Below, in pieces: positions 10,889 through 54,736 of a stretch of 64,000 nt of DNA; positions within the stretch are counted from its first letter, which is position 1, and each line of letters begins with the position of its first letter. The position numbers and the translations under genes were made by a program. This stretch comes from Planctomycetota bacterium (lineage in GTDB: Bacteria > Planctomycetota > PUPC01 > DSUN01): positions 49,388-113,387 of the forward strand of contig DATKZY010000187.1 of assembly GCA_035527715.1 (NCBI GenBank), given 5' to 3'. The notes below the pieces were generated by a model that was not told the origin of the DNA, ran no database searches, and saw only the letters and a program-made list of their open reading frames with translations.

Positions 10889-10897
10889 TATGGTAGA
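10889..10897 (+). promoter_or_regulatory. Putative extended -10 promoter element TGGTAGAAT about 9 nt upstream of ATG 10907, suggesting a leaderless or near-leaderless mRNA
   Basis: It lies in an AT-richer patch, atatggtagaattactgcgATG, within a 470-bp intergenic region. There is no SD sequence. Confidence 0.3.
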
Positions 10898-10906
10898 ATT
10901 ACTGCG

Positions 10907-34560: not shown

Positions 34561-34570
34561 TTTCTCCGCG

Positions 34571-39058: not shown

Positions 39059-42000
39059 ATGCCGATGCCCCAGGTGCACTTCGCGGTCGGCATGGGAGCG
39101 GCCTCGCTGCTGGGCGTGCCGCTGCTCGTGCTGCGCCGGCGCTGGCTCCTGTGGCTGCCGCTCGTCATGACCGCGTGCGGCGCGCTGGCGCTGGTGCCCG
39201 ACGTGGTAGCGCGGGGCAGGGACTTCCTGCCCGGGCCCGCGGCCGAGCGGGGGCGCACGCACACCCCCGCGGCCAACGTGTTCTTCCTGCACACGTGGCT
39301 CGACCGGCAGCCGGCCCTCTACGCGCCGGCCGTGGCCGACCTGGCGTTCCAGGCCGTGGCGCTGATGTACCTGGCCTCCGCCATCGGCTATGCGGCCTTC
39401 CTCCGCTGGGGGCTCCCTCGGATGGCCGAAGCGGGGGAGGCGTTAGCGCGGCTGCGGCGCGAGACGGCGAGCTATCGCCCCGTGGCCGCCCTGCTCGGCC
39501 TGCTGCCGCTCGTGGTGGCCGGCGCGGCGGCGGTGTGGACGCTGTGGCCCAAACGCCCCGCGGGCGCGCCCGCCCAGGGGCAGGAGGCGCTCGACCCCGC
39601 GCAGTGGGCGCAACTTGTCTCGCGGCGCCTCGGCGTCGCGGTCGGCCAGCGCCTCGGCGTCGTCCATTCGACATGGGACAGCCATGGGGCCTGGCTGTGC
39701 GGCGACCTGGGGGCGAGGGTGTCGCCCGACGCGCCGGGCGCCGCCGAGCTCGTCGAGCGCGCGAAGGCCAATGGCTGCGATTTCGTGGCGTTGCTGGACG
39801 GCGCGAGCCCTGACGACCTTGCCGCGGCGCGACAGAAGCACCCCGACATGGCCCTCCTGGCGGGCCTGGTGTGGGACGCGCCGACGAGGCGGGGGGCCGA
39901 GCGAGCCATCGTGCTGGTGCCGCCGCAAGCGCGCGAGGCCGCGGTGCTGGCCGACTTCCGCCGGCAGTTCGCCGGCCCGGGCGGATCGGCAGAGGATGCC
40001 CTGCGATGGCTCGACGCCCACGGCGCCTCGCCCAAGGCACAGCCCGTGGTCCTGGCGGCACAGGCTTCCAGCCTGTGGGCCACAGGCAAGATGCCTGTGC
40101 CACCGGGCAGCGGGGAGGGCTGGCCGGATCTCTTCTCGTGGCGGCGGACGAATGGGCTGTTCATCGGCTTCCTCGGCCTTCCGGGCGCCGAACGCCTGTC
40201 CGCCCGCGAGGCCCGCAGCCAGTGGGACCCCCGCGTGGCCGCCGTGGGGGGCATGTGGGACAGGTTCCTGGACGGGGGCTTCCGGCTCTGGGGCGCGGCC
40301 GCGGCATCCGGCTTCCAGGACCCTGCCCGGCAGTTCTGGCCGGGCGAGTTCGCCCGCACCCACGTGTGGTGCCGCGGGCGCGCCGCGGAGGACGTGTTGG
40401 GCGGCCTCCGGGACGGGTGCTTCTGGGCCGTCGAGGGCGCGGTCGTGCGCGCGCTGGACTTCGGGGTCAACGCCCCGACGCTCGAGCGGCCCGCGCGGAT
40501 GGGCGAGGTGGCCCGCGTGGCGCCGGGCGACGAGGTGACCGTGGAGCTGGCCCTGGACGTGCCGCCCACCGACTTCGCCGGGCGCCCGAGCCAGCTCGAC
40601 GAGGTGGAGCTGGTCTCGAACTTCGGCGGCGAGGCCGAGGTCGTCGCGCGGTTCCGCAACGTGCACGACGTGCGCCGCCTCGAGCACCGCCTGCCGCCGG
40701 CCCAGGACGCCAACGGCGGCCTCGGCTTCTACGTGCGCGCCCGAGGCTCCCGCCGCGTGGATGCGGGAGCGCGGCTGTTCTTCTACACGAACCCCATCCG
40801 CGTCCTCGTGCGGCCGGGGCTGGCGCCGCCGGCGCCGCCGGGCGCGGCCCCCGTCCGCGTGGCCTCGGCGCACCGCCCCGTCGAGCCCGCGCCGCCGAAG
40901 CCCAAGACGGCGACGCCCGTAGCGCCGCCGCCCGAGGACGACGTGCGGGCGCGGCTCGCCGCCGTCGGCCTGCCGGCCGGCGTGAGCCCCGTGTGCGTCG
41001 AAACGTTTCAGAAGCCGCCCGGGCGCCAGTGGCTTGGCGCCCACGTGAGCATCATCGGCGACCGCGGCCCGGCCCTGGGCGACGAGGAGCTGCGCGTCGA
41101 GCTCCTCCAGCGCATCCCCCTTGGCGAGGCCACCCGACTGTTCTTCCGGTGCTACGCCTTGGACTGTGCCCGGCTGACGCTTGTCGCGCGCCCCGGCGGC
41201 GGAGCGGCCGCCTGCCAGGCCGTCCGCGAGCTCCCCGAGCGTCAGTGGGTCGAGTTCGACCTCTCGCTCGGCGACGACTTCCTGCCCCTGCGCGGGACCT
41301 CGGGCCGCCTGGGGCCGCCGGGCGAGGTCCAGGCCCTCGAGTGGGCTGGCGCCCGCCTCGGGCCGCTCTCGCGCTTCTACGTGACCGATGTCGTCGTCTA
41401 CGAGCCCACGCCTGCCAGCCGCCAGGGGCTGGCCCTGAAGCAAGCGGTGGACCTGGACGCGGCGCTGCGCGAGACGGCGGGCCGAGGGGCGACCGCAGCC
41501 ATGCAGCAACGGGCCCAGGCCGCCCTGGACCGCCTCGCCGCCTGGCGCGCGCGGCTCGACCCCAGACGAGGGCCACCGACGCCCGACGAACTGGCCGCCG
41601 TCCGCCGCGACCTGGCCGAGTTGGCCGCCGAGAGCCGTTGTCTTGGCTGGCAGGCCGCCATGACTCGCACCTTCCGCCTCGGCGACCCCAGGTTCGCCGT
41701 CACCCTCGCCGCCCCCGGCCAGCGCATCTCGGCGCGCAACCCCGCGCTCAACCCGTCGCCACAGATCGCCCGCTCGTGGGACCTGGCCGCCGCCGGCGCC
41801 GAGGCCGAGAGCGTCCAGATCGTCGTCATCGCCCTCTGGGACAGGCTCGAGGCCGTCGCCGTCGGCGTCTCGCCGTTCGTCCCTGTGGCTCGGGATGGGG
41901 CCGAGGGCCCGCCCGGCGGCGAGCGGGCCGCCACGCTGCCGACCTCGCTTGCCCTCGTGGGCGAGGCGATGGTGCGCCCAGGCCCCCTCCTCGCCCCCGA

Positions 42001-43882
42001 GCAGGCGGGGTGGATGCCCGACCCGTTGCTGCCGTTCCAGCTCTTCGACGTCGAGCCGGGCGAGGCCCGCTCGCTGCTTCTCACCGTGGAGGTGCCGCCC
42101 GACCTGTTGCCCGGCGAGTACGAGAGCGAGGTCACCGTGCAGCCGCGGGGCATGGAGCCCGTGCGAGTGGCGGTGCGCCTGCGCCGCTGGGGCTTCACCC
42201 TCGAGGGCCACCCCCTCGCGGTGTTCGGCCCGCTCGACGAGCGGGCGCTCAGCGCGCACTGCGCCTCCGGCAAGGCCGTTCCCCAGCCGCTTCGCCGCGC
42301 GCTCTACGAAATGCTGCTGCGCCACGGCGTGACCCCGGTGCCCCTGCTCGGCGGCGACGAGGCGGCGGACCTCGAGGAGGCCCTCTTCTGCCTCGAGGCC
42401 GGCGCGGGCGTAGTGGTCCTGCGCGAGGCTGCCTCCGTGGCCCCCGGGCCGCGGGAGGCCGACGTGGCTCGCGCCGCGCGCTGTGCCGACAGGATTCGCG
42501 AGGCCGGCTGGGGGCGCCGCGGCGCGCTCCTCCTGCCCCTGGCGCCCGACGCCGAGAGGGAGCGCTCCCGGATGGCCGCCTTCGCCCGCACCCTCGCCCG
42601 CGAGCACCCGGCGCTCCTGCTCCTCGCGGGGGGCGACAGCGACCCGCCCCTCGACCTGGTGACCCACGTGTGGCGCCGTCCCCTGGGCGCCGACCCGCCG
42701 CGCCGGCCCCACGACAACGACGTGGATGTCCGCCTCTCCCGCACCGCCCGCCGCGAGGGCTGGGAGCTTGTCGCCGGCTCGCCCGAATCCCCCGTGCCCG
42801 GTCTCCTCGTCACCAGCCCACTCCACCACGTCCGCCTCCTGCCCTGGCTCGCCTGGCAGCACGGCGTCCGAGCCCTCTTCCTCCGCGGCGTGACCCGGTG
42901 GCAGGAGGACGACGATTTGCGCGACGGCGCCCTCGTCTACCCGCTCCCTCTTCCCGCACACCCCGCTCCCGGGGGGGGAGGGTGCTGCGCCTCGCTGCGC
43001 CTCGTGGCCCTCCGCGACGGCATCGAGGACTACGCCTGCCTGCGCCTGCTCTGGGACCGCGCGCGCCTGCTGCGCGAGCGCGCCGCCGCACGACACGGGC
43101 CCCTCCTGGCCGCGGCGGAACGCCTTCTCGCCGACGCCGCCGGCGGCATCGGCACCCTCCAGCGCCCGTGCCGCGACCCACACGTGCTCGCGACCCTGCG
43201 CGCGCGGCTGGCCCGCGAGCTCGAGCGTCTCGACGCCGCCTGGTGGGCCGAGGTGGACGCCGCGAAGGACCTCCCGCCTCCGCCGCCCGCCCTCACCGCG
43301 AAGCCGGGCGACGGCCAGATCGTCCTCACCTGGGGCAGGAGCCCCGACGCCAAGGTCGTCGGCTACAACGTCTTCCGCAGCCGCGCTCCCGAGGCCGGCT
43401 TCGCGCGCCTCAACGCCCTTCCCATCGAGGGCCTCACCTACGTGGACCGCTCGGTGGCCAACGACGTCACCTACCACTACTTCCTGCGCTCGTGCCGCGA
43501 CGGGCTGGTGGACGGCCCTCGGAGCGCCCTGGCCTCCGCCCAGGCCCGCCCGGCGCCGCGCATCGTGTGGCTGCCCGGCGCCACGCCCCGCCACGGCGTC
43601 GCCGGGCCCTGCCGCATCGCGCTCCGCGTCGAGGGGCCCGGCACGGCCGGCCTCCTGCCCCTCGTGCGCCCGCAGATGGACTACGCGGCCGCCGGCGCCG
43701 CGTTCGACGGCTTCGAGGACATGACGCGCCAGGACGACGGCACCTGGGCCTTCGACATTCCCGACCTCGGCTGGCGCCGCCTCGCCGGCGAGAGGCTCCG
43801 CATCCAGGCGCGCATCGTGGACCGCCAGGGCCGCGTCGTCACGCCCCCGGTCGAGCGCAGCGAAACCATCGGCGCGCCCTGA
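39059..43882 (+). CDS. Large (1607 aa) membrane-anchored multidomain protein: N-terminal membrane domain, central DUF4091-like (glycoside-hydrolase-associated) region and C-terminal fibronectin type III-like domain
   Basis: The frame is continuous with high GC3. WMPDPLLPFQLFDVEPGEARSLLLTVEVPPDLLPGEYESEVTV resembles DUF4091. The Fn3-like region is PGDGQIVLTWGRSPDAKVVGYNVFRS. A double CACAGGC hairpin is inserted in-frame at 40057..40101. Confidence 0.65.
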   Translation: MPMPQVHFAVGMGAASLLGVPLLVLRRRWLLWLPLVMTACGALALVPDVVARGRDFLPGPAAERGRTHTPAANVFFLHTWLDRQPALYAPAVADLAFQAVALMYLASAIGYAAFLRWGLPRMAEAGEALARLRRETASYRPVAALLGLLPLVVAGAAAVWTLWPKRPAGAPAQGQEALDPAQWAQLVSRRLGVAVGQRLGVVHSTWDSHGAWLCGDLGARVSPDAPGAAELVERAKANGCDFVALLDGASPDDLAAARQKHPDMALLAGLVWDAPTRRGAERAIVLVPPQAREAAVLADFRRQFAGPGGSAEDALRWLDAHGASPKAQPVVLAAQASSLWATGKMPVPPGSGEGWPDLFSWRRTNGLFIGFLGLPGAERLSAREARSQWDPRVAAVGGMWDRFLDGGFRLWGAAAASGFQDPARQFWPGEFARTHVWCRGRAAEDVLGGLRDGCFWAVEGAVVRALDFGVNAPTLERPARMGEVARVAPGDEVTVELALDVPPTDFAGRPSQLDEVELVSNFGGEAEVVARFRNVHDVRRLEHRLPPAQDANGGLGFYVRARGSRRVDAGARLFFYTNPIRVLVRPGLAPPAPPGAAPVRVASAHRPVEPAPPKPKTATPVAPPPEDDVRARLAAVGLPAGVSPVCVETFQKPPGRQWLGAHVSIIGDRGPALGDEELRVELLQRIPLGEATRLFFRCYALDCARLTLVARPGGGAAACQAVRELPERQWVEFDLSLGDDFLPLRGTSGRLGPPGEVQALEWAGARLGPLSRFYVTDVVVYEPTPASRQGLALKQAVDLDAALRETAGRGATAAMQQRAQAALDRLAAWRARLDPRRGPPTPDELAAVRRDLAELAAESRCLGWQAAMTRTFRLGDPRFAVTLAAPGQRISARNPALNPSPQIARSWDLAAAGAEAESVQIVVIALWDRLEAVAVGVSPFVPVARDGAEGPPGGERAATLPTSLALVGEAMVRPGPLLAPEQAGWMPDPLLPFQLFDVEPGEARSLLLTVEVPPDLLPGEYESEVTVQPRGMEPVRVAVRLRRWGFTLEGHPLAVFGPLDERALSAHCASGKAVPQPLRRALYEMLLRHGVTPVPLLGGDEAADLEEALFCLEAGAGVVVLREAASVAPGPREADVARAARCADRIREAGWGRRGALLLPLAPDAERERSRMAAFARTLAREHPALLLLAGGDSDPPLDLVTHVWRRPLGADPPRRPHDNDVDVRLSRTARREGWELVAGSPESPVPGLLVTSPLHHVRLLPWLAWQHGVRALFLRGVTRWQEDDDLRDGALVYPLPLPAHPAPGGGGCCASLRLVALRDGIEDYACLRLLWDRARLLRERAAARHGPLLAAAERLLADAAGGIGTLQRPCRDPHVLATLRARLARELERLDAAWWAEVDAAKDLPPPPPALTAKPGDGQIVLTWGRSPDAKVVGYNVFRSRAPEAGFARLNALPIEGLTYVDRSVANDVTYHYFLRSCRDGLVDGPRSALASAQARPAPRIVWLPGATPRHGVAGPCRIALRVEGPGTAGLLPLVRPQMDYAAAGAAFDGFEDMTRQDDGTWAFDIPDLGWRRLAGERLRIQARIVDRQGRVVTPPVERSETIGAP
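40057..40101. repeat. Palindromic element family C: GGCACAGGC-ttcca-GCCTGTGGGCCACAGGC-aagat-GCCTGTGCC, nested hairpins, in-frame in a CDS
   Basis: 24 nt are identical to 28593..28616 in the GT2 gene. It encodes [17 protein letters not shown]. Confidence 0.75.
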
Positions 43883-43955
43883 GGCCACGCCGCGCCCACC
43901 CGGCCGGGTTTCGTCGCCCCGCGCCGAAGCGCATTGTGTTCGAAGGAGTGACCCG

Positions 43956-44786
43956 ATGTCGTTCGCCCAGAAGCTCCTCGCCGCCCTCTGGCTGGCCGCC
44001 GCCGCGCTCGCCGGCGGAGTGCCCGGCCGCGAGCCGCCCCTGAACTTCCCCGACATCGTGGCGCGCGTGCGCTGCGGGATCGGCGTCGTCGGCACCTACA
44101 ACCCGGCCAAGCGCCCCTCCCTCGAATTCCACGCCTCCGGCTTCTTCCTCAGCGACAAGGGCCACTTCGTCACCGCCAACCACGTGCTCGAAACCATCGC
44201 CCAGCGCAAGCGCCTCGGCGACCTGCGCGTCTTCCTGCCCAGCGACGCCACCCGCGACGGCCACCGCGCCACCGTCGTGGCCACCGACGCCAGGCACGAC
44301 GTCGCGCTGCTCCTGGTCGAGGGCGGCGACTTCGTCCCCCTCGAGCTGGGCGACTCCGCCCGCGTCCGCGAGGGGCAGGCCATCGCCCTCACCGGCTTCC
44401 CCTTCGGCTTCTTCCTCGACCTGCACCCCTCCACCTGCGTCGGCATCATCAGCAGCATCAGCCCCATCGCCCTCCCCATGCACGGCAGCCGCCTGCCGGA
44501 TGCCGAGATGCGCGAGGCCCTGCGCAGCCCGTTCAACGTCTTCCAGCTCGACGCCACGGCCAACCCCGGCCACAGCGGCGGGCCGCTCTTCGACCCCGAG
44601 ACCGGCAAGGTCCTGGGCGTCGTCAACAGCGGCTTCATCCGCAAGACCAAGGAACAAGTCATCTCCACCGGCATCAGCTACGCCATGCCCATCCACCTCG
44701 CCAGGCCCACGCTCGACGAGGGCCTGAAGGCCAAGCCGGGCCTCCTGCCGCTGAAGGTGGGTGGCCAAGAGCCTTTGAGGAAATGA
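43956..44786 (+). CDS. Secreted trypsin-like (S1/chymotrypsin-fold) serine protease
   Basis: It has a signal peptide. The catalytic triad context is TANHV (His), DVALLLV (Asp) and GHSGGPLF (Ser). GAAGGAG is the RBS. Confidence 0.8.
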   Translation: MSFAQKLLAALWLAAAALAGGVPGREPPLNFPDIVARVRCGIGVVGTYNPAKRPSLEFHASGFFLSDKGHFVTANHVLETIAQRKRLGDLRVFLPSDATRDGHRATVVATDARHDVALLLVEGGDFVPLELGDSARVREGQAIALTGFPFGFFLDLHPSTCVGIISSISPIALPMHGSRLPDAEMREALRSPFNVFQLDATANPGHSGGPLFDPETGKVLGVVNSGFIRKTKEQVISTGISYAMPIHLARPTLDEGLKAKPGLLPLKVGGQEPLRK

Positions 44787-44935
44787 GCCGCAACCACCCA
44801 CGTTGTCATTCCGAGCTTGTCGAGGAACCTTTCAAGGGTATTGCCGCAACAGCGAGTTCTGCCTCGATCTGCGTCAGTTCCCCGCCCGAGCGTTGTGCCA
44901 GGCCTTACAGCGGCGGCGTCGAGAAAGTCACCCCG

Positions 44936-45151
44936 CCCTTGCACGCCGGCTTGCCCCTCGCCCAGGTCGCCGCGGAGTTCCTCGGCCTGGAGCGCGGCCA
45001 CACGCCCCTGGTCCCCGCCCTCGAGTGGTCGCGCACCCACGGCTCCCGCCTCGCCGTCACGTTCGACGGCGCGGCCCTGTTCCGGGGCTTCCTTGCTGCC
45101 ATAGACCAGGCCTGGTCGAAGCCATTCGAGGAACGACCGGGCGACCGTTAG
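44936..45151 (+). CDS. Hypothetical small protein. It may be a spurious ORF.
   Basis: Only the 3' 70 codons of track ORF 44783..45151 have coding-like GC3. The 5' part has low GC3 and no homology was recognised. Confidence 0.2.
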   Translation, partial: PLHAGLPLAQVAAEFLGLERGHTPLVPALEWSRTHGSRLAVTFDGAALFRGFLAAIDQAWSKPFEERPGDR

Positions 45152-45187
45152 CCTGTAGCGGGGCCGCCGGAACACTGCGACCAGAGC

Positions 45188-45216
45188 GGGGTCACATCTT
45201 CCTTGTCATTTGGCAA
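45188..45216. mobile_element. Degenerate solo left arm of palindromic element family A (GGGGTCACATCTTC-cttgtc-ATTTGGCAA), intergenic
   Basis: It matches the A-family left arm apart from a 6-nt insertion. No right arm follows. Confidence 0.5.
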
Positions 45217-45343
45217 TCAGAGTCGGCCCATTGACTCCGGGGGGCGGTCGGGGTAGTCTATTGTGTTAGTGCGATGGCGGGGCGGGTCAGAAGGCGCGGA
45301 GCCTGGCGTGACACCCGTAACACGAAACCCGGAACAAGGCATC

Positions 45344-46258
45344 GTGAATGCGATGAGCTGCGACCTCGAGGAGTACTTCCAGGTGCAGTGCTGCGACGGG
45401 GTGATCGCGCCCGAGGCGTGGGACACCATGCCTTCGCGCCTGGAGCCGAGCACGGAACGGGTGCTGGCGCTGCTCGACGAGGCAGGCGTGAAAGCGACCT
45501 TTTTCGTCCTGGGCTGGAACGCCGAGCGGCACCCCGACCTGGTGCGGCGCATCGCGGCTGCGGGCCACGAGATCGCCTCGCACGGCTACGCGCACAAGAT
45601 GATCCCCGACCAGAGGCCCGAGGAGTTCCGGGCCGACGTGTGCCGGGCCAAAGCGCTGCTGGAGGACCTCACGGGCCGGCCCGTGCTGGGCTACCGGGCG
45701 CCGACCTTCTCGATCACCGAGCGCTCGCGGTGGGCCATCGCCATCCTGGCCGAGGCCGGCTACCGCTACGATTCGAGCGTCTTCCCCATCCGCCACGACC
45801 GCTACGGCATCCCCGACGCCCCGCGATTCCTGCATGAGCTGAACGGGGCGGAGTGCGGAATGCGGGGTGCGGAATGCGGGGTGCGGAATGCGGAAGGGAC
45901 GGACAGGCCGCACCTCATTGAGTTCCCGCCCACGACTCTGCGGGTGCTGGGCACGAACGTGCCGGTGGCGGGCGGCGGCTACCTGCGGCTCCTTCCCGCG
46001 CGGCTGATTCTGGCCGCGCTGCGCCGCGTGAACCGCCTGGGGCACCCGGCCATCGTGTACTTTCATCCCTGGGAGCTGGACCCCGAGGCGCCGCGGCTGC
46101 CGCTGCGGGGCCTGCGCCGCTTCCGCCACTACGTGGGCCTTGCCCGCGCGGCCGCCAAGTTGCGGCTCCTGCTGCGCGGCCTCGCCTTCACCACTGCCGC
46201 CACGGTCGTCGGGCACTGGGTGGCCGCGCACCACAAGGGGGAAACAGCGAATGGGTAG
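45344..46258 (+). CDS. Exosortase-system-associated polysaccharide deacetylase (TIGR03006-like, DUF3473 + NodB). It carries an in-frame 49-nt heptamer array.
   Basis: VNAMSCDLEEYFQV...ATFFVLGW...ASHGYAHK...LGYRAPTFS matches the XrtA/PEP-CTERM-locus deacetylase family. An alternative start is ATG 45352. The array at 45848..45896 encodes GAECGMRGAECGVRNAEG. Confidence 0.8.
   Translation: MNAMSCDLEEYFQVQCCDGVIAPEAWDTMPSRLEPSTERVLALLDEAGVKATFFVLGWNAERHPDLVRRIAAAGHEIASHGYAHKMIPDQRPEEFRADVCRAKALLEDLTGRPVLGYRAPTFSITERSRWAIAILAEAGYRYDSSVFPIRHDRYGIPDAPRFLHELNGAECGMRGAECGVRNAEGTDRPHLIEFPPTTLRVLGTNVPVAGGGYLRLLPARLILAALRRVNRLGHPAIVYFHPWELDPEAPRLPLRGLRRFRHYVGLARAAAKLRLLLRGLAFTTAATVVGHWVAAHHKGETANG
45848..45896. 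repeat. Heptanucleotide array of 7 units: GCGGAGT GCGGAAT GCGGGGT GCGGAAT GCGGGGT GCGGAAT GCGGAAG, in-frame in a CDS
   Basis: It also reads as a 14-mer (GTGCGGAATGCGGG) repeated three times. Confidence 0.85.
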
Positions 46259-46574
46259 TCTCGCAACCGTGCTGGATTGCGTGTTTATCGTCGCGTTCGG
46301 CGCCTGGGCCTACGTGGCAGCCGGGCGCAAACGACGCGATCAGGTGGGCTGGCCCCTCATCGCCGCCGTGGCCTTCTGGCTCCCCGGCTATCTCATGCAG
46401 GACGTGATCTTCCCGCTCCTGGCCGAGAAGCTGGGCTGGACGGCCGAGTGCCAGGCGGCGTGGCGAAAGCCGTCGGCCTACATCGTCGGCGGCCTGTGCG
46501 CCCTGGGGGTGGACCTGTACCTGACGTTCTTCGTGCGCCCGGCAGCGGAGCCGCCGAAGCAGGCGGCGCCGTAG
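46252..46574 (+). CDS. Small 2-TM membrane protein. It is a paralog of the N-terminal domain of the exosortase gene.
   Basis: 107 aa. It is about 75% identical to residues 1-100 of the 46623 gene (FIV.FGAWAYV...KRRD.VGW.LIAAVAFWLPGYLMQDV.FPLLA). Confidence 0.55.
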
Positions 46575-46622
46575 GCGGCCCCGCGCGGCCGCACGCCAGG
46601 CCCCCGGCGGGAGAATCTGCGA

Positions 46623-48191
46623 ATGGATAAGATCGCCGCTCTGCTGGATGGCGTCTTCATCGTCGTCTTCGGCGCCTGGGCCTACGTCGTCGCCAAGAGG
46701 AAGCGGCGCGACGAGGTCGGCTGGCTGCTCATTGCCGCCGTGGCCTTCTGGCTGCCGGGGTACCTGATGCAGGACGTCCTCTTCCCGCTTCTGGCGAAGC
46801 ACCTCGGGTGGACGCCCGAGTGCCAGGAGACGTGGCGGAAGCCCTCGGCCTTCATCGTCGGCGGCCTGTGTGCCCTGCTCGTGGACCTCTATCTGACGTT
46901 GTTCGTCAAGCCGCTGCCCCCGGCGCCCGAGGCGGGCGGCGGGGCGCCGCCGGCCGCCGGGGCCGGCCCGACCCCTCCGCCGGGCGAGGGCGGCGAGGCC
47001 CAGCCGCCCGCGGCCGGCGACGAGGGGGCCGCTGCACAGGAGATGGGCGCGCCCGCCCCAGCGGCCGGCCCCGACCTCCGCGCCGAGGGCCCCCTGGACT
47101 ACCTGGCCCGCTACTGGCCCACGGGCATCATCGTCCTCATGTACCTCCTCCCTACCCTCGATGCCTTCGAGCCGATCATGCCGCGCCTCGGCTTCACCCG
47201 AGTCCACGGCGGGCCCTACCCGCCCTATCGCGAGCTCGCGGCGTCCCTGCTCGTGGGCGTGCAGGTGTGGCTCTGGGGCCGGCGACTGGCGCCTGCGCTC
47301 CTGTGCGCCCTGTTCTGCGCGGCGTTCATCCCCGAGATGAACTGGATGGAGTGGCAGTGGAGCCGCGGCAGCTCCTACTACTCGCACGGCTACCTGGTGC
47401 CCTTCGTGACCCTGTGGCTCGTGTGGATGAACCGCCAGCGCCTGGCGAAGCTGGAGCCGAAGGGCGACCTGTGCGGCGTGGGGCTTCTCACCCTCGGGTT
47501 TGGCCTGCTGCTCCTGCTGGCGGGCGCCTACCTGCGCATGGGCTCCATTCAGGGGGCGAGCTTTCTCGTCGTGCTCTGCGGCCTCGTGTTCTTCCTCTAC
47601 GGCCGCGCGATCAGCCGCGTGCTCCTCTTCCCCCTGCTGTTCACCGCCTCGATGATCCCGCTGTCCATGTGGGCGCTCGACGCCTTCACGTTTCCGCTGA
47701 AGATGTTCGCCACCGCCGGCACGGTGCAGGTCGTCAACGGCCTCCACACCGCCGGGATGCATCCCCACCGCGTGGCGCAGGAGGGGAATGAGGTGACGTG
47801 GCGCCTGGCCGACGGCACGAAGGACAAGCTGACGGTGGCCGAGGCGTGCAGCGGCCTGAAATCGCTCATCGCCCTCCTCACCTTCGGCGCCCTGCTGGCC
47901 TACCTGGCCAAGCTCTCGCGGCGGCACAAGCTCGTGCTGTTCCTCGCCGGGATCCCCGTGGCGCTCCTGGCCAACATGTGGCGCATCATCACCCTGGTTC
48001 TGCTCGCGGGCCGCTGGGGCTCGAAGGTGGCGCAGCCCGACCACTTCGTGCACGATGCGACCGGCCTGGGCATTTTCGTCGTGGCCTTCATCCTTTTCTT
48101 CACCTTCGAGCGCGTGCTCCAGAGGTTCGAGCCCGGCGGCGCCGAGGCGGAGCCGCAGGACCTTGGACCCCTCGTCGCCGCCTCACCCTGA
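46623..48191 (+). CDS. xrtA: Exosortase (XrtA-like) fused to an N-terminal small-membrane-protein domain and a Pro/Gly/Ala-rich linker
   Basis: The exosortase hallmarks are SSYYSHGYLVPFV, the catalytic-Cys motif VAEACSGLKSLIAL and LANMWRIITL (N..R). It is polytopic. The first 100 aa duplicate the upstream small gene. Confidence 0.8.
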   Translation: MDKIAALLDGVFIVVFGAWAYVVAKRKRRDEVGWLLIAAVAFWLPGYLMQDVLFPLLAKHLGWTPECQETWRKPSAFIVGGLCALLVDLYLTLFVKPLPPAPEAGGGAPPAAGAGPTPPPGEGGEAQPPAAGDEGAAAQEMGAPAPAAGPDLRAEGPLDYLARYWPTGIIVLMYLLPTLDAFEPIMPRLGFTRVHGGPYPPYRELAASLLVGVQVWLWGRRLAPALLCALFCAAFIPEMNWMEWQWSRGSSYYSHGYLVPFVTLWLVWMNRQRLAKLEPKGDLCGVGLLTLGFGLLLLLAGAYLRMGSIQGASFLVVLCGLVFFLYGRAISRVLLFPLLFTASMIPLSMWALDAFTFPLKMFATAGTVQVVNGLHTAGMHPHRVAQEGNEVTWRLADGTKDKLTVAEACSGLKSLIALLTFGALLAYLAKLSRRHKLVLFLAGIPVALLANMWRIITLVLLAGRWGSKVAQPDHFVHDATGLGIFVVAFILFFTFERVLQRFEPGGAEAEPQDLGPLVAASP

Positions 48192-48856
48192 TGCCGGAGA
48201 AAACGCCCATGCGCACCCTCAACCAGCGCTACGCCGTGGCCAGCGTTCTCCTGGGGGCTGTGGCGCCCCTCGTCCTTTACCTGAGCTACAGCGTCCCGCC
48301 GCCCTCCGACGTCGGGAACATCGCCAAGGCCATCCCCTCGGACCTCGGGAAGTGGACGGCTGTGGACGAGAAGGTCGGCGGGACCCCTGAGGAAAGGGCG
48401 ATCCTCCAGACCGATGCCATCTTCACGCGCACCTACTCGTGCGGCACCTTCCCCAGTTTCGACCTCTCGATCGTCTACGCCCAGGACAACCCCAACGCCA
48501 TCCATCCCCCCGAGCTGTGCTACAAGGGCAGCGGCTGGACCGAGACGGTCCGCGACACGATCGCGCTCGCCGTCGGCGAGCAGGTGTTCCACCTGAATCG
48601 CCGGCACTTCGTCCGCGGCACGGGAGCCCGCATGTGGGTCCTCTACTGGTTCAAGGCCGGCTCGGAGAACACCCCCCGCTACCTGAGCTTCCACTGGGCG
48701 GCGCTCAAGGCGCGGCTGCTGCGGAGCGGCTGCTCGTGCGCCCTCCTCCAGGTGCGGGCCGAGTTCGACCCGTCCGCCCACGGCAGCGAGGTGCTGGCGG
48801 AGCTTCAGAAGTTCGCCGCTGTCGCCATACCGGCCGTCAGCGCCGCCATCCCCTAG
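48191..48856 (+). CDS. epsI: EpsI-family exosortase-associated protein
   Basis: It has an N-terminal TM. IHPPELCYKGSGW matches the EpsI signature (HsPe.Cl.G.GW). TGATG overlaps the exosortase stop. An alternative start is ATG 48209. Confidence 0.75.
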   Translation: MPEKTPMRTLNQRYAVASVLLGAVAPLVLYLSYSVPPPSDVGNIAKAIPSDLGKWTAVDEKVGGTPEERAILQTDAIFTRTYSCGTFPSFDLSIVYAQDNPNAIHPPELCYKGSGWTETVRDTIALAVGEQVFHLNRRHFVRGTGARMWVLYWFKAGSENTPRYLSFHWAALKARLLRSGCSCALLQVRAEFDPSAHGSEVLAELQKFAAVAIPAVSAAIP

Positions 48857-49318
48857 GCTCCCACGGGCGTCCCGCGGGGGCCGCCAGCCGCGCGCGTGGG
48901 ACCCATCACCTGTCCGAAATCCCTGAATGCCCGCCGGGCCGCCCCAACACTGTTTGCGAATGGACACATGCGGTTCCGGGGAGCGAACACGACGCCATGT
49001 CCAGACCCAGCCGCGACTTAGGTGCGCGGACCCTCTCTCAGGCGTCTGGTGCTGCTGACAACGGGCGGCCCCGTGCTCGGGGCGCCGCGGAGGGGGAGGG
49101 CGCCCCATGTCGGAGGCCGGCTCCGCAAGTCCTGCTTCCATAAGCCTTTAGCTATTCTCGCGGCGGCGGCTGCGCCCCGTGCCGCAACCGGCATGAATGT
49201 TGCTGTGTACCCCACCGGGCGGAGTGGTGCGCGAGGCGACGCTGCGCAGAGATGTGTTGGCGGCGAGCCGCCACCTTCCGCCAGAGAACCCCCGGACGGC
49301 TCGGTGGGAGTGCGCCCG

Positions 49319-49723
49319 ATGAGTGCCCCGACGCGACCATCGGTAGAGCGGCGCAGGTATCGGCGCTTCGAGCTCTCCGCGCCCCTCGTCTTCACCGTCA
49401 AGACGAAGGCCGGCACCAGCGTGTCCCACTCCGGCATCACCCGCAACGTGAGCCCCGGCGGCCTCTACTTCTGCACCCTCGCGGCGCAGGATCTCCATCC
49501 ACAGCAAGAAGTTACGGTGAACATCATCGTCCCGCGCCGGGGGAACCCCTCCGAGGCGACCGTGTCCCTCTCTGGCGAGGCGAGGGTCGTTCGAGCCGAG
49601 CGATTGCCTGCGTCGGCCGACGCCTTGGCCCGCGATGGCGAATGGTGGGGGGTCGCCGCGCAGTTCACGGGCCGGCCCCGCGTTGACCTCTCCAGCGTTG
49701 ACGACCTCTTCGGCGGCACGTAG
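49319..49723 (+). CDS. PilZ domain protein (putative c-di-GMP receptor)
   Basis: 134 aa. The RRYRRFEL (RxxxR) and NVSPGGLYF (DxSxxG-like) motifs are correctly spaced. The track ORF starts at 49022, but the upstream part is not protein-like. Confidence 0.7.
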   Translation: MSAPTRPSVERRRYRRFELSAPLVFTVKTKAGTSVSHSGITRNVSPGGLYFCTLAAQDLHPQQEVTVNIIVPRRGNPSEATVSLSGEARVVRAERLPASADALARDGEWWGVAAQFTGRPRVDLSSVDDLFGGT

Positions 49724-50041
49724 CCAACGGCCGTTTCCCACGCGCCGCAGCCATCCCGCGCCGCTCGAGCGGGGGCCTGCTGGGGCCATCGGCGGCCCGG
49801 ATTCCGAAAAACAAGACAGGCCCGCGCTGCGGAGCGGACAACTCGCCTGCCCGGCCGCGCGCCGCGGCGGGCCGGCTGCGGGTCGCCCGCGGAAGCTGCC
49901 GGCGTAAGCTACAGGTGCGTAACGACTTGTGAAGTGCCGCCAGAGCGAGGCCGCGAACTGGTATTTCCGCGTCGGACGGCACGGTTGTTGCAGCCTCCCA
50001 CCACAGGTGTGTGTGGCAGTTGCCTGTGAGGGTCTTTGTCG

Positions 50042-50725
50042 ATGCCAGAGCCGGCAACCATTCTCGTCCTTGGCGGTGGAGCGGGCGCGCTATACCTGCG
50101 CTTCTTCCGCAACCGCTACGCCGAGTTCAAGCGTGCGACTGACATCCTGTTCGCCCTGCCGGGTGTCGCGATCGCGGCCCCGATCACCCTGTTCCTCGCC
50201 CTCCTGGTCAAGCTCACCTCGCGCGGGCCGGCCTTCTACCTCCAGGAGCGGGTGGGCAAGGACGGTAGGGTCTTCAAAATCATAAAGTTACGCACAATGG
50301 TCGCCAACGCCGAGGCGGCCACCGGCCCCGTGTGGGCGGCGGCGAACGACCCGCGCGAAACCTGGCTCGGCCGGATCCTGCGGCGCACCCATCTTGACGA
50401 GTTGCCGCAGTTCTGGAACGTTCTGCGCGGCGACATGAGCCTCATCGGCCCCCGGCCCGAGCGCCCCGTGTTCGTCGAGAAGTTCCGGAGGGAGATCCCC
50501 GGCTACGCCGCGCGCCTCACCGTCCGCCCGGGCATCACCGGCTGGGCACAAGTCAACCACCCCTACGACCGATCCGTCGAGGACGTGCGGCGCAAGGTCG
50601 AGTTCGACGCCGAGTACATCCGTAAAATGGGCTGGGGCATTGACTTGCGCATCATGGCCGCCACCGCCGCCCGCATGCTCAGCCTCCGTTCTCGTCCCGC
50701 CGCCAACGCGGGCAAGCACTCCTGA
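50042..50725 (+). CDS. Polyprenyl-phosphate sugar phosphotransferase (bacterial sugar transferase, WbaP/WcaJ C-terminal domain type; EpsL-like)
   Basis: KRATDILFALPGVAIAAPITLFLALLVKLTSRGPAFYLQERVGKDGRVFKIIKLRTM...DELPQFWNVLRGDMSLIGPRP is the canonical Bac_transf pattern. TTG 50036 is an alternative start. Confidence 0.85.
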   Translation: MPEPATILVLGGGAGALYLRFFRNRYAEFKRATDILFALPGVAIAAPITLFLALLVKLTSRGPAFYLQERVGKDGRVFKIIKLRTMVANAEAATGPVWAAANDPRETWLGRILRRTHLDELPQFWNVLRGDMSLIGPRPERPVFVEKFRREIPGYAARLTVRPGITGWAQVNHPYDRSVEDVRRKVEFDAEYIRKMGWGIDLRIMAATAARMLSLRSRPAANAGKHS

Positions 50726-50897
50726 CGTCCGGCAACCCCCTCTCCCTCCCACGGCCCATCGCACTGTGCTGCGTCTGCCACGCCCGTGGCAGCCCAGGCT
50801 GACCGGTTTGGCTGACACGGTCGGGGATGAGGCCCGCGCGACGAGAAGCTCGCTTCGCGACCACGGGCCAGGCCAGGAGTTCTTGGGGGGAGGTGGG

Positions 50898-50935
50898 CGG
50901 GGAGGGGACTTCCTTGCGAGGAAAGTCCCTCCCCG
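50898..50935. terminator. Strong GC hairpin cGGGGAGGGGACTTCCT-tgcg-AGGAAAGTCCCTCCCCg between convergent genes. It is a putative bidirectional terminator.
   Basis: About 16 bp of stem. It lies 12 nt downstream of the minus-strand TIM-barrel gene stop and about 170 nt downstream of the plus-strand sugar transferase. There is no clear U-tract. Confidence 0.4.
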
Positions 50936-50946
50936 CTGCATTCGTG

Positions 50947-51744
50947 TCAGCCGAGATAGCTTTTCATCGTGGCGAGTTCGCGGGGGAGGTGGGTCTGCCA
51001 GGGCTCCCAGTTGATCCATTCGCCGCTGAGGTAGCCGTCGTAGCCGATGCTGCGGAGGAGCGCGACGGCGCGGCGGTGGTCTATGAAGCCCTGGCCGATG
51101 GGGCAGAGCTGAGTGCCCTTGTCGCCGCGCGTGCCGTCGTGGAAGTGGACGTGGCGGATGTCGGGGCGGAGGACGTCGAACGCCTCGTCCATCGTCATGC
51201 CCGCGGCGTTGACGGGATGCATGATGTCCCAGTTGACGCGGACGTTGGGGTGTCCGACGCGCTCGATGACGGCGGCGAGGTCGTGGGCGTTGCACCAGGA
51301 GTCGTGGGTCTCGACGCAGAGGGTGACGCCGGCGGCGCGGGCCTCGGGGGCGAGGGCGGCGAGGGAGTCGGCGAGCTGCGTCGCGGCGGTGTCGCGGGTC
51401 ATGCCCTGGGGGATGCCGCCTCCGAAGACGCGCATGGTGGGGGCGCCGAGGTCGTGCGCGAGGGCGATGAGGGCGCGGGAGTCGGCCATCATGCGGCTCA
51501 GCTCGGCGGGGGTCGGCGCCGTGTAGGAGCAGGAGGTGGCGAGGCAGGCGATGCCCACGTCGGCGTCCTCGGCCATGCGGCGGAGCAGGGCGCGCTGGCC
51601 CGCGGTGGTGGACGGCTCGACGCCGTGGAGGTGCTTGGCCTGGGCGCGCGGCTCGACGCCGTCGTAGCCCAGGCGGCGGGCCACGTCGAGCACCTCGGCC
51701 CAGGTGAGGTCGGGGCACGAGAAGGTCATGAAGCTGAACTTCAC
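50947..51744 (-). CDS. Sugar phosphate isomerase/epimerase (xylose-isomerase-like TIM barrel)
   Basis: Metal-binding-like motifs CVETHDSW and HVHFHDG are present. AGGAG lies 8 nt upstream of GTG 51744. The track's upstream ATG at 51762 is less likely. Confidence 0.8.
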   Translation of the reverse strand: MKFSFMTFSCPDLTWAEVLDVARRLGYDGVEPRAQAKHLHGVEPSTTAGQRALLRRMAEDADVGIACLATSCSYTAPTPAELSRMMADSRALIALAHDLGAPTMRVFGGGIPQGMTRDTAATQLADSLAALAPEARAAGVTLCVETHDSWCNAHDLAAVIERVGHPNVRVNWDIMHPVNAAGMTMDEAFDVLRPDIRHVHFHDGTRGDKGTQLCPIGQGFIDHRRAVALLRSIGYDGYLSGEWINWEPWQTHLPRELATMKSYLG

Positions 51745-51874: not shown

Positions 51875-54736
51875 CTACTTCGGGAGGGCGAAGAGAATGA
51901 CATGGTCGTCTCCTGCATACGCCACGCGCCGGCCGTTTGGGGAGAACGCGAAGTCGTGCCGCAGCAGAGGGGAAACCGCTTTGGGGTGTTCCATGCGTTC
52001 GAGAGACCGAAAGTGGCCGAGCGCTTGCGGCTTGTCGAGATCCCAGAGCTGCACGACGCACTCGCCGTCGCACGAGAGAAGGCGGCGCGAGTCCGGCGCA
52101 AATGCCACGCGGGCGACATCGGCGGAGGCATTCAGGTCGAAGAGCCGCTGTTCGGCGAGCACATCCCAGACCTGAATGATCATGGGGGAAGCGGCTGCCA
52201 GCATGGCAGCACGCCCTCCGTCGGGGGAAACAGCCGCTATCCCAGCCCCAGGAACCAGAAGATCGGCGATGAACACGTGAGACAGGCTGCCATCCTTCAC
52301 CGACCTCCGCCCGATAGTGGAGCCACCGCACGAGACGATCGAAGAGCCATCGGGGGTGAACCAGACGCGCCAGAAGTCATCAGTGTCCACCAACCGGTCA
52401 CAAGGTTCTGGGCCACCCAGCCACAACGGTTCTCCCGTTGCGGCATTCCAGAGTCTGATCGTCTTGTCATTGGCGCAGGATACGGCGTTTCGCCCGTCCG
52501 GGGAGATGGCCACGCAGTTCGCGAGCGCCGTGTGCCCTTCGAAGGAGCGCAGCTCCCTGTGCGCTTCCCACTCGAGAAGGTGAAGCCTGTTGTCGGCACC
52601 AGGAGCAAGGATCTGTGAGCCGTCCGGAGAGAAGGCCAAGTTGCCACCCGGTGCGAACTGGATGCCCCTTTCAAACCTGGAGGTCACGAGCCCCGTCCCG
52701 GCGTCCAGCACGACGATTTCGTCACCCGAGCCCACTGCGATACGGTCACCCTGGGGTGAGAAAGCGATGCAGTGCAGGTGGGCAAGTGGCCATCGCCACA
52801 GTTCGCCTACGACCTGTTCCTCAATGGCCTGCATGGCCCGCCGGACATTGTCCTTGGTGGGGTCCTTCTGCAGCAAGCCGAGCAGAATGCCGTGGGCCCG
52901 CGACACATCGCCCTTGCTCATAGCTGAGAGCGCCGCGGTGAGGCGTTCGAGCTCGTCGGTCGGGCACCGCGGGTACTCGCTGCCACCGGGGCCCAGGAAG
53001 CGGGTGAATAGCGACGCGAACCCGAAGTCACCCGAATCATCCGGTTTGAAGCCCACCAGCCGCGCTAGGGCCAGGAACCACGCGCCGACGTCACCAGACT
53101 GGGACGCCCTGACCGCGAGTGCCCTGAGTCTCATGAGCTCAGTGGCTTGCCGTTCTGCGTGCGTAAGAGCCTTCTCGGTCTCTGGGCTGCGAAGCTCCTT
53201 CGGAATCTGGTCCAACGCTCCCCACGCCTTCACGTAATCCTGTTTGTCGTAACCAGCCTTGGAGGCGGCTTGTTGGTCGCGGACGGCCTTGGCCAGAAAT
53301 TCGCGGCCCTTCTCGTGGTCCGGCTTGAGTTGCAGGTAACGATGAAGGCTGGTTAGCATGGCCTTCACTTCACCTGCACCGCGCGCTCGGTTGAACTCTT
53401 CGGTCAGCCTCTTGAGCGCCTCCGCGGTCTGGCTCGCGCGGTCTTGAAGTTCATTGATGGCCTTCGTCCGTAGTCGCTCAGGCACCTGCCGGAGGAGAGC
53501 TGCGGCCTGAGCATACTCGTAACGGCCCAGCGCGGCCTTGGCCGCATCACACACATTGCGGACCAGGGGGGCGCCGAGCTCTTCCACCTCATTCAGATAC
53601 GGCCTCAGTTCGAGATAGCGTTCGAGTCTAGGTGCGACGCTGGAGAGTTGGCCCGCCTGGGCGGCTTGCTCGATTTCGGCTCTCAGGCTGGCGAGCTCAG
53701 CGGCCTTGGCGCGGGCGTCGGCAAGAAGGCTCTGAATCTGAGGCGTGCGCAACGGCTCGGGGACCTGTTCCAGCAGCGCCACGGCCTCGGCATACTCGTG
53801 TCTGCCCAGGCATTCCGTGGCGCTGGCGAGGAGCTCGTCGCGCCGGCGCTCAAGCTGGTCGTTCTCGTCACGGACCGCCTGGACGACGCCGCTGGCCCAC
53901 TCGGCGAATGGTTTGAGCCGCGGGTGTTGGAGCGCGGCCATCTCCTCGAGGAGGCGGATGGCCTCGGCGTGCTGGTATCCGCTGCGAAGGGCTTCGACTT
54001 GCTCCTTCCTGGCCTGGAGTTCTCCGATGCGGCTCTGCCGCAGGGCGGGGAGATCGGCGCCGCAGTCGCCGCAGAACCTGTCCCAGGTGGAGTTGGTGTG
54101 GCCGCAGGCCAGGCACGGCTCCTGGAGGGGCTCGCCGCATCCGCCGCAGAACTTCCGGTCCGCCGGGTTCTTGCGGCCGCAGCCGGGGCATTGGCCCGCG
54201 GCCTCGGCGGGGGCAGGGGCCGCGGCTTCGTTTGGCGCGGCGGGAGCGCGCGTCGCTTCGTCCCCCTCCGGCAGCTCGGGGGCGGGCGGAAGGCTCTGGA
54301 CGAGGCGATCTACGTCCGCGCGGAAGGTGCGGCCGGAATTGACCTCTGCGGCATTGCGGAAGGCGAGGGGCTGGAGGTCCAAGGGGAGCTCTTCGGGCCT
54401 CGGCATGGCGGCCCCGTGGACGAGGACGGGGACGACGACGATGCCGCGCGCGAGGGCGAGCTCGATCTCGGCCCGCACGAAGTCCCCGGGGTCATCGAGC
54501 CGCCGTGTGCCGTCCCGGCCAAGCACCGTCAGCCACCTCTGGCCGATGATGGCGAGGAGGACGTGGCACTTGCCCAGCTCCTGCTCAATATGCCGGCGGA
54601 AGTCGGCGCCGTACGGGATCGTGTCCACATCAATGAAGAGCGATTGGGCGCCGAAGCGGGCCTCGAGGTGGTCGTAGATGCGCCCGGTGACGTCGGAGCT
54701 ATCCTCGCGTCGGTAGGAGACGAAAATCTTGGGCAT
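51875..54736 (-). CDS. TIR-domain protein with a double zinc ribbon, a long coiled-coil/helical region and C-terminal WD40 beta-propeller repeats
   Basis: 953 aa. The N-terminus IFVSYRREDS...DFVRAEIELAL has TIR motifs including the conserved Glu. CPGCGRK...CGGCG...CLACGH...CGDCG are two zinc ribbons. WD40-like repeats carry LWN, VWD and LWD motifs. GGGAG is the RBS. Confidence 0.85.
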   Translation of the reverse strand: MPKIFVSYRREDSSDVTGRIYDHLEARFGAQSLFIDVDTIPYGADFRRHIEQELGKCHVLLAIIGQRWLTVLGRDGTRRLDDPGDFVRAEIELALARGIVVVPVLVHGAAMPRPEELPLDLQPLAFRNAAEVNSGRTFRADVDRLVQSLPPAPELPEGDEATRAPAAPNEAAAPAPAEAAGQCPGCGRKNPADRKFCGGCGEPLQEPCLACGHTNSTWDRFCGDCGADLPALRQSRIGELQARKEQVEALRSGYQHAEAIRLLEEMAALQHPRLKPFAEWASGVVQAVRDENDQLERRRDELLASATECLGRHEYAEAVALLEQVPEPLRTPQIQSLLADARAKAAELASLRAEIEQAAQAGQLSSVAPRLERYLELRPYLNEVEELGAPLVRNVCDAAKAALGRYEYAQAAALLRQVPERLRTKAINELQDRASQTAEALKRLTEEFNRARGAGEVKAMLTSLHRYLQLKPDHEKGREFLAKAVRDQQAASKAGYDKQDYVKAWGALDQIPKELRSPETEKALTHAERQATELMRLRALAVRASQSGDVGAWFLALARLVGFKPDDSGDFGFASLFTRFLGPGGSEYPRCPTDELERLTAALSAMSKGDVSRAHGILLGLLQKDPTKDNVRRAMQAIEEQVVGELWRWPLAHLHCIAFSPQGDRIAVGSGDEIVVLDAGTGLVTSRFERGIQFAPGGNLAFSPDGSQILAPGADNRLHLLEWEAHRELRSFEGHTALANCVAISPDGRNAVSCANDKTIRLWNAATGEPLWLGGPEPCDRLVDTDDFWRVWFTPDGSSIVSCGGSTIGRRSVKDGSLSHVFIADLLVPGAGIAAVSPDGGRAAMLAAASPMIIQVWDVLAEQRLFDLNASADVARVAFAPDSRRLLSCDGECVVQLWDLDKPQALGHFRSLERMEHPKAVSPLLRHDFAFSPNGRRVAYAGDDHVILFALPK

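Follow-up and report, generated by a model that had tools for sequence, protein, structure and literature searches.

How does an exosortase come to carry at its N-terminus a small membrane module that is encoded a second time, as a separate gene, directly in front of it, and which of the two copies was there first? The question is raised by a 64,000-nucleotide stretch of DNA (hereafter the window; G+C about 70%) from contig DATKZY010000187.1 of the assembly GCA_035527715.1 (positions 49,388 to 113,387, forward strand), which contains, from a very large gene cluster for exopolysaccharide (EPS) of an uncultured planctomycete, the end devoted to protein sorting. In the explanation that we favour, with a probability of roughly 0.7, the enzyme represents an unnamed exosortase subfamily, the free gene was derived from a partial duplication of the exosortase gene, the N-terminal module might serve for docking, and cyclic di-GMP (c-di-GMP) and sigma-54 could set the timing of the system. 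The exosortase, its parts and the free gene are positioned as follows.

46251..46574, plus strand: free module gene of 107 codons, paralogue of the N-terminal module of the exosortase
46623..48191, plus strand: exosortase of 522 amino acids (PF09721, TIGR02602, TIGR04178)
46623..46913, plus strand: fused N-terminal module, amino acids 1-97; three helices and an invariant loop in which a Lys/Arg-rich stretch is followed by RDEVGW
46914..47090, plus strand: low-complexity linker of Pro, Gly, Ala and Glu, amino acids 98-156; predicted to be disordered (about 55 residues), with a predicted local distance difference test score (pLDDT) below 50 over about 105-148
47091..47285, plus strand: two extra, clade-specific helices (157-178 and 201-219) within amino acids 157-221, from the AlphaFold2 model and the alignment
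47286..48191, plus strand: catalytic core, amino acids 222-522 (PF09721 at 228-495, TIGR02602, TIGR04178, EpsH motifs)

It was confirmed that the 522-residue open reading frame (ORF) codes for an exosortase, as the first-pass annotation of this DNA had claimed. PF09721 matches amino acids 228-495 with 180.6 bits (against 25.7), TIGR02602 gives 139.1 bits (cut-off 105.55) and TIGR04178 gives 68 (against 23), and the motifs quoted in that annotation are present. The EpsH family has three invariant motifs, Cys-x-Gly, Asn-x-x-Arg and His-x-x-x-Gly (PMC1569441); here they are found as C409-S-G411, N451-M-W-R454 and H477-D-A-T-G481, and they are invariant in the alignment of 38 homologues. In the AlphaFold2 model, built with the family alignment (mean pLDDT of the whole model 83), amino acids 222-501 of the core form mostly long helices of 11-33 residues (222-234, 236-247, 259-269, 284-304, 307-326, 328-344, 349-376, 413-428, 433-465 and 475-501), with at least eight transmembrane helices, and the hydropathy scan agrees with this. 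When the full model was compared with the PDB by Foldseek nothing was obtained below E = 1, thus no solved structural relative of the enzyme was found there.

The classification against the Xrt models, which had been suggested together with the annotation, left all named exosortase and archaeosortase types below their cut-offs. XrtA (TIGR03109) is the best-scoring named type with 150.4 bits, under its cut-off of 208, and other types are far under theirs (XrtW 143 against 425, XrtV 138 against 313, XrtD 132 against 400, XrtB 99 against 275); no type-specific cut-off was reached among XrtB-D, G, H, K, N, O, S-X and Z, CrtA-C, ArtB, ArtC, ArtE and ArtF. Among the markers of the XrtA system TIGR03006 scores above its cut-off, the matches of TIGR03088, TIGR03097, TIGR03019 and TIGR03013 stay below theirs, and PrsK, PrsR and PrsT were found in none of the window ORFs scanned. 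The enzyme belongs to an unnamed, lineage-restricted subfamily in which an N-terminal accessory region precedes a canonical core. As a variation on a known system it is real, though modest.

The accessory region deserves a closer description. An N-terminal domain within the exosortase ORF had been recognized from the sequence, but its length had been put at about 100 amino acids; the whole extension has about 225, made up of the 97-residue module, the linker and the two further helices before the core. The small domain had also been described as having two transmembrane segments, whereas the AlphaFold2 model gives three helices (2-26, 31-61 and 65-93) with pLDDT values of 93-98. In the 38 homologues D9, G17, A24, R29, D30, E31, G33, W34, G46 and G80 of the module are invariant, as are W165, P166, P198, R203 and W216 of the extra-helix stretch, while the linker between them is of variable length, with gappy and weakly conserved alignment columns.

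At least 38 full-length homologues of 479-584 amino acids, down to 39% identity, cover 95-100% of the query and share this layout. Therefore the architecture, which had been considered unusual on account of an N-terminal module that is indeed real, is not a one-off. All of the full-length homologues come from metagenome-assembled genomes of Planctomycetota or 'Ca. Brocadiia', and in a GTDB search with one genome per species the matches starting at residue 1 were restricted to the same two groups. In the next relatives without the module (Scalindua, Anammoxibacter, Omnitrophota and others) the alignment starts only at about amino acid 217-243. No Pfam or NCBIfam family was matched by the small protein or by the N-module, even when hits up to E = 5 were allowed. 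When 1.84 billion representative proteins were searched with a profile built from 40 modules, 14 matched at E <= 0.001, and the nine strong matches (E <= 1e-20) are these exosortases or their fragments; the five weak ones (P0076-P0080), either unrelated repeats or generic small membrane proteins whose basic loop is similar, were set aside as uninformative.

The combination of a fused N-domain and a free paralogue is real, and this layout is absent from every named exosortase type. XrtD and XrtW, which are exosortase-EpsI fusions, and the longer forms XrtN, XrtO, XrtT and XrtZ likewise have the core and an extra domain in one polypeptide. In those types the extra domain is C-terminal, their models aligning to the window core near the profile start. 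In the window exosortase, in contrast, the addition is N-terminal, unrelated in sequence and accompanied by a stand-alone paralogue, and EpsI is a separate gene.

Since such a layout could be produced by a sequencing or assembly error that joined two genes, or by an erroneous stop codon that split off the free gene, the integrity of the region has to be considered. The two window copies are exactly 372 nt (124 codons) apart and in one frame, with a single TAG between them, which is what an artefact of this kind could look like. However, four independent assemblies (from ENA, from JGI and, in two cases, from Logan) do not differ at a single position of 46251-48191, so the fusion is not an assembly error. 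Furthermore, the fused ORF is uninterrupted in at least 38 homologues, and in the other loci the free and fused genes are in different frames. No stop codon or frameshift separating the N-domain from the exosortase was found in any of the four assemblies or in these homologues, a break that the first-pass annotation had named as fatal to its proposal; we give the artefact next to no credence. The in-frame spacing of 372 nt in the window may be chance, or it may be the trace of an in-frame tandem duplication that was later split by a stop. Programmed read-through of the in-frame TAG was also considered and was rejected as a conserved feature because the frames differ in all other loci.

The small gene upstream of the exosortase had been correctly recognized and its end at 46574 stands, but it starts at 46251 instead of 46252. 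In a BLASTP comparison its product is identical to the exosortase in 76 of 97 positions (78%, E = 1e-51) over residues 1-97 of both proteins, slightly above the earlier estimate of about 75%. The free protein has three predicted transmembrane segments and a short Pro-rich tail.

In order to determine which form is the older one, every copy of the module was located by tblastn in all fetched loci (designated here by L numbers). In 28 distinct ones the beginning of the exosortase gene can be seen. The fused form is present in every sublineage, including the deepest ones at 39-48% identity. It is the only copy in 18 of the 28 loci, among them all of the deep-branching ones (L013, L014, L016, L017 and L110-L113) and L011, which is closely related to the window. 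In the remaining 10 loci a free copy is present as well, in every case directly 5' of the fused gene, and the free copies are of five types (window/L091/L006, L090/L102/L104, L093/L103, L099 and L101). In none of the loci does a free copy accompany an exosortase without the module, and no stand-alone homologue of the module away from these exosortases was found among the strong matches in the 1.84 billion proteins. The sole free module without an adjoining fused copy is that of L094, apparently a broken contig: at 494-1758 a truncated module ORF of 150 amino acids, placed after a deacetylase, runs into unrelated GAF-like genes and Ns. L094 is probably a chimeric or broken assembly and not a free-only locus.

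In the neighbour-joining analysis the free copies of the window type, six in number, are grouped together with a bootstrap value of 92% and their fused partners with one of 83%, two separate clades that do not fit concerted evolution within the window subclade. Monophyly of all free copies was recovered in 0 of 200 bootstraps, the free copies being nested among the fused modules. The five types are not alike in their C-terminal tails, stop positions, gaps and distance from the fused gene, and the free copies of the window type and of the L093/L103 type are closest to the subclade of their own partners. Considering the distribution, the nested trees and the differing tails, stops and spacing together, the most economical order of events is that the fused form came first and that the free gene was produced by partial duplication of its 5' end. 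We infer from these comparisons that the free gene would have arisen by partial tandem duplication of the 5' end of the exosortase gene at least once, and probably more often.

The first-pass annotation had suggested the opposite, namely that a free membrane-protein gene was duplicated in tandem and one copy was then fused to an ordinary exosortase. It is true that the free copy lies next to the fused one and is 78% identical to it, and a tandem duplication is needed either way; nevertheless the direction looks reversed, since the fused form is found everywhere, the deep members and 18 of the 28 loci have it alone, no locus combines a free module with an unfused exosortase, a free homologue elsewhere is missing among the strong matches, and the free copies nest within the tree of fused modules. 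Thus fusion of a pre-existing free gene appears very unlikely. It is more difficult to decide how many times the duplication happened. If one partial duplication had happened long ago, when the main clade began, and had been followed by many losses and by occasional gene conversion with the neighbouring fused copy, this would agree with the occurrence of free copies in five sublineages and with the weak backbone of the tree, which was built on 97 amino acids. Some further observations favour such a single event and at the same time count against our preferred reading: the free copies of the L090/L102/L104 type, of L099 and of L101 are no closer to their own partners than to other modules, and two of the types share the derived loop RDEIVW (I32, V33), a hint of common ancestry. 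Our reading is also weakened by the sister position of the window-type free clade to its partners, which appears in the best tree with only 43% bootstrap support, and by the DNA around the duplication junction, where local alignments showed no similarity above shuffled controls. On the other hand, a single duplication is difficult to reconcile with the 0 of 200 bootstraps for a common free-copy clade, with the proximity of the window-type and L093/L103-type copies to the subclade of their own partners and with the tails, stop positions and spacing that differ between the types, and many losses would be required, as 18 loci are single-copy. We consider it possible but doubtful, and prefer partial duplication of the exosortase gene on probably more than one occasion.

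Another sequence feature near the start of the fused gene was considered and was dismissed. The sequence 5' of the fused gene (GGGAGAA...GCGAATGGATAAG) could have been a vestige of the 3' end of the deacetylase gene that was carried along in the duplication of the module, but local alignments of the spacer with the deacetylase end and with the linker were not above those of shuffled sequences, and the TAA in the GCGAATGGATAAG stretch just belongs to codons 2-3 (Asp-Lys) of the fused gene. In a second sublineage, at L090 (946-1291) and at L102/L104 (3670-4008), the free copy of 112 amino acids ends with ...PANG, and the fused gene begins within its stop (ATGGGTAG); the overlap that joins the free to the fused gene there is the same motif that joins the deacetylase to the small gene in the window.

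Whether the free gene is functional or just a decaying by-product of the duplication could be judged from its sequence. It has coding-like composition (G+C of 0.89 at third and 0.50 at second codon positions), its orthologues (P0002-P0006) are 71-86% identical, and its ATG overlaps the deacetylase stop (ATGGGTAG) and is preceded by GGGGGAA, which resembles a ribosome binding site. The ratio of nonsynonymous to synonymous substitutions (dN/dS, Nei-Gojobori) is 0.19-0.38 among orthologous free copies and 0.17-0.35 among orthologous fused modules, although these values are rough because about 100 codons are compared and dS is compressed by extreme codon bias, a limitation which counts against this part of the argument. 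Judged by these ratios, the free gene is under purifying selection. A functionless fragment would explain why the free copy is absent from most loci, among them the closely related L011, which has lost it or never acquired it, and also why loop residues that are invariant in the fused module are relaxed in the free copies. Nevertheless, intact ORFs of 94-127 amino acids are maintained in 10 distinct loci, dN/dS is similar to that of the fused module, the third-position G+C and the hydrophobic helices are retained, and the start has kept both the GGGGGAA and the overlap with the deacetylase stop; therefore we regard a functionless by-product as unlikely.

The relaxed residues are E31, V32 and G33 (46713-46721 in the fused and 46341-46349 in the free copy), which are 98-100% conserved in 45 fused modules and are substituted in free copies. 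V32 is replaced by Ile in most free copies, and G33 by Val, Met, Ala or Ser in all types other than that of the window, the loops being RDQVGW in the window, RDEIVW in L093 and L102, FDPVAW in L099 and RDGLSW in L101. The pattern suggests that part of the role of the loop is needed only in the tethered copy.

The neighbouring genes and regulatory elements of the window show in what kind of system the two copies are embedded.

39059..43882, plus strand: conserved protein of 1607 amino acids; no Pfam or NCBIfam match; tblastn orthologues 39-48% identical at the equivalent position in L013, L014, L015 and L017
43956..44786, plus strand: secreted trypsin-like serine protease of 276 amino acids (PF13365, Trypsin_2, 88.7 bits), syntenic with the exosortase module
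45263..46258, plus strand: polysaccharide deacetylase of the XrtA-system type (TIGR03006, 354.8 bits against a cut-off of 276.2; also PF01522 and PF11959)
48191..48856, plus strand: EpsI (start at 48209 according to the gene callers; TIGR02914, 68.7 against a cut-off of 42.8; PF11984, 87 against 26.1)
48951..48968, plus strand: near-palindromic element TGTTTGCGAATGGACACA, unique in the window, in a block conserved in L014, L016 and L017
49190..49204, plus strand: predicted sigma-54 type -24/-12 element GGCATGAATGTTGCT, 115 nt upstream of the PilZ start
49319..49723, plus strand: PilZ protein of 134 amino acids (PF07238, 30.4 against a gathering score of 22.5)
49978..49992, plus strand: second predicted sigma-54 type -24/-12 element GGCACGGTTGTTGCA, 44 nt upstream of the sugar transferase gene
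50036..50725, plus strand: short (229 amino acids) polyprenyl-phosphate sugar-phosphate transferase, a priming enzyme (PF02397, 214.5 bits)

Across the clade the order of the genes is conserved: the 1607-residue protein, the trypsin-like protease, the TIGR03006 deacetylase, the exosortase, EpsI, PilZ and the priming sugar transferase. The large protein and the protease precede the exosortase in most related loci where this region is visible; the protease is kept 5' of the deacetylase in L013-L017, L100, L102-L105, L107 and L112, with 55-61% identity in L013-L017. Both proteins probably belong to the functional module of the exosortase. EpsI, whose presence had been predicted, was verified by its TIGR02914 score and its adjoining position, its ORF beginning at the exosortase stop codon. 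With TIGR03025 and TIGR03013 the sugar transferase aligns over their C-terminal, catalytic portion, at scores below both cut-offs, and its orthologues are 75-90% identical across the clade. An Rfam scan of 43800-51000 gave no credible RNA family.

The PilZ protein had been said to link the exosortase module to c-di-GMP control, and EpsI and PilZ, the latter with intact c-di-GMP-binding motifs, proved to be parts of one conserved module. The details of that description were only partly correct: the RxxxR motif is present (R12-R13-Y14-R15-R16, RRRYRR), but the second motif is NxSxxG (N42-V-S-P-G-G47, NVSPGG) and not DxSxxG, and PilZ does not follow EpsI directly but after a gap of 462 nt; a further gap of 312 nt separates it from the sugar transferase. 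Across 32 homologues there is no variation at R12, R15, R16, V44, P46 and G47, and hardly any at S45. The AlphaFold2 model (pLDDT 77) has the c-di-GMP-bound PilZ domain of YcgR (5y6g) as its top Foldseek match (E = 5e-5, TM score 0.53), followed by MrkH, MotI, VCA0042, BcsA, MapZ and Alg44; phmmer found no match for the protein among the PDB sequences. The 35 database homologues are all 114-134 amino acids long and share 56% identity or more with the window protein, and most of them carry PF07238. The gene is present in 13 of the 14 fused loci where the region 3' of EpsI is visible (L013 has none) and in 0 of 72 loci with unfused exosortases (tblastn, E <= 1e-5). The PilZ protein is genuine and specific to the fused-exosortase clade, and binding of c-di-GMP is predicted from its motifs and fold. 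In the literature searched there was no paper that linked PilZ or c-di-GMP to an exosortase.

Known PilZ receptors, such as Alg44, the PilZ domain of BcsA and the stand-alone YcgR, MapZ and MotI, share with the window protein the fold, the RxxxR and [D/N]xSxxG motifs and the location of the gene in an EPS locus, and the best structural matches of the model are PilZ proteins that bind c-di-GMP, solved with or without the ligand. The window protein differs from these receptors in being a single-domain, stand-alone protein that is not fused to a synthase or co-polymerase.

The two sigma-54 type elements were first seen by aligning the long intergenic regions. They were defined by GG at -24 and GC at -12 with canonical spacing (TGGCAC-N5-TTGCW), and the window was scanned with the pattern GGCAYG-N4-TTGCW, which has only 2 matches in the 64 kb against 0.08 expected by chance. 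In the related loci (L006, L011, L014, L016, L017, L099, L100, L102-L104, L106 and L110) the element is conserved in position, 5' of PilZ in 13 of 13 and 5' of the transferase in 12 of 12. No gene for RpoN or for a cognate enhancer-binding protein was found in the window, and a scan for sigma-70 promoters and terminators performed no better than on shuffled sequences. The near-palindrome TGTTTGCGAATGGACACA is located about 240 nt upstream of the PilZ sigma-54 element; it has the form ATGTTTGCGATTGGAAACAT in the relatives (L014 about 12464, L016 about 3060, L017 about 9234), and in the distant relatives L014, L016 and L017 repeated TGTTGACGATCGTCAACA palindromes are found 5' of the transferase promoter. 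Both TGTTTGCGAATGGACACA and the TGTTGACGATCGTCAACA repeats are candidate binding sites of a sigma-54 enhancer-binding protein. There is a precedent in Proteobacteria, where genes of the PEP-CTERM system are under sigma-54 control with PrsK/PrsR (PMC1569441): the -24 GG/-12 GC elements in long intergenic regions and a conserved upstream element are common features, while the window belongs to a different phylum, has a different upstream motif, and its predicted promoters would regulate PilZ and the priming transferase.

The comparison can be extended to the whole EpsH/XrtA-EpsI system (Haft et al. 2006, PMC1569441; TIGR02602, TIGR03109, TIGR02914, TIGR03006). The window has in common with it a multi-helix membrane enzyme with the CxG, NxxR and HxxxG motifs, EpsI immediately downstream, the EPS locus, an adjoining XrtA-system deacetylase and sigma-54 promoters. 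In contrast to XrtA, the window exosortase scores below the cut-off (150 against 208) and has its own extension of 225 amino acids (five helices and a linker), and the locus has a free module paralogue and a PilZ protein in the conserved module. PrsK, PrsR, PrsT and a PEP-CTERM protein are absent from the window, and the predicted sigma-54 sites stand before PilZ and the transferase instead of substrate genes.

Taking these data together, the following model can be outlined. Following the proposal made for EpsH/XrtA, the exosortase and EpsI would cleave PEP-CTERM-type anchors off secreted proteins on the outer (periplasmic) side of the inner membrane. The positive-inside rule would place the basic-RDEVGW loop and the linker in the cytoplasm, and with this topology the five extra helices leave the core in its usual orientation. 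The N-module might be a membrane docking or oligomerisation element, with which the free copy, where it is present, could associate in trans as a separate subunit, and c-di-GMP, acting through PilZ, together with a sigma-54 activator might set the timing of EPS priming and sorting. Two points stand against this model: the charge distribution is the sole basis of the topology, and no PEP-CTERM tail was detected in six-frame scans of the 64-kb window or of about 16 kb past its ends, which agrees with the earlier statement that the window holds no such substrate. The regular-expression scans for PEP-CTERM gave only noise in non-coding frames, both in the window and in the flanks. In the Lake Tanganyika relative L006, a Gly-rich repeat protein of 763 amino acids is encoded right after the transferase (6634-8925, minus strand); it ends with PEPATLTLLALGGLALLRRRRKS (the tail is also quoted as ...IPEPATLTLLALGGLALLRRRRKS) and is a canonical PEP-CTERM protein without a counterpart in the window.

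A more ambitious version of the model would be that the module is a dedicated docking platform, where the tethered RDEVGW loop binds PilZ, the free paralogue sets stoichiometry or activity, and c-di-GMP gates sorting and priming post-translationally. We find this quite unlikely; if it were true, it would be the first c-di-GMP-controlled exosortase.

Exosortases are widespread, and to our knowledge they are almost uncharacterised biochemically and have no solved structure, accessory parts being among the few handles on their assembly and control. The subfamily described here adds an N-terminal membrane module that is seen, among strong matches, only here, and the naturally 'split' module in about a third of the loci offers a ready-made experiment on function in trans. 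The linked PilZ gene and the two predicted sigma-54 promoters may tie sorting and EPS priming to c-di-GMP and to enhancer-dependent transcription in Planctomycetota. The free gene itself would be a clean example of how a new small membrane-protein gene can be derived from a larger gene by partial duplication of its 5' end. In practical terms the impact is limited, since all members come from uncultured organisms and their function is inferred.

Some features of the surroundings should also be mentioned. The EPS cluster at 1-38600 of the window is unusually rich in modifying enzymes. It encodes three radical-SAM proteins (31099-32223, 34529-35953 and 36167-37525), two of them with B12-binding domains, several SAM methyltransferases, three PMT_2/ArnT-like GT-C proteins and further deacetylases, and a UbiA enzyme resembling decaprenyl-phosphate phosphoribosyltransferase is located at 10463-11845. 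A second polysaccharide deacetylase of the DUF3473 type (15926-16813 of L117) and further glycosyltransferases are encoded outside the window, the deacetylase some 5-6 kb before its position 1; since genes of this kind go on to the left of the window, the EPS cluster exceeds 64 kb in length. Directly 3' of the module a protein of 953 amino acids is encoded on the minus strand (51875-54736), which according to the gene-call table combines an N-terminal TIR domain, a double zinc ribbon and WD40 beta-propellers. At the right end a large protein without a PEP-CTERM tail runs from 59816 to 64000 on the plus strand and past the end of the window (1400 amino acids in L115), in which NPCBM, a hydrazine-synthase-alpha middle domain and an FGE-sulfatase domain are joined.

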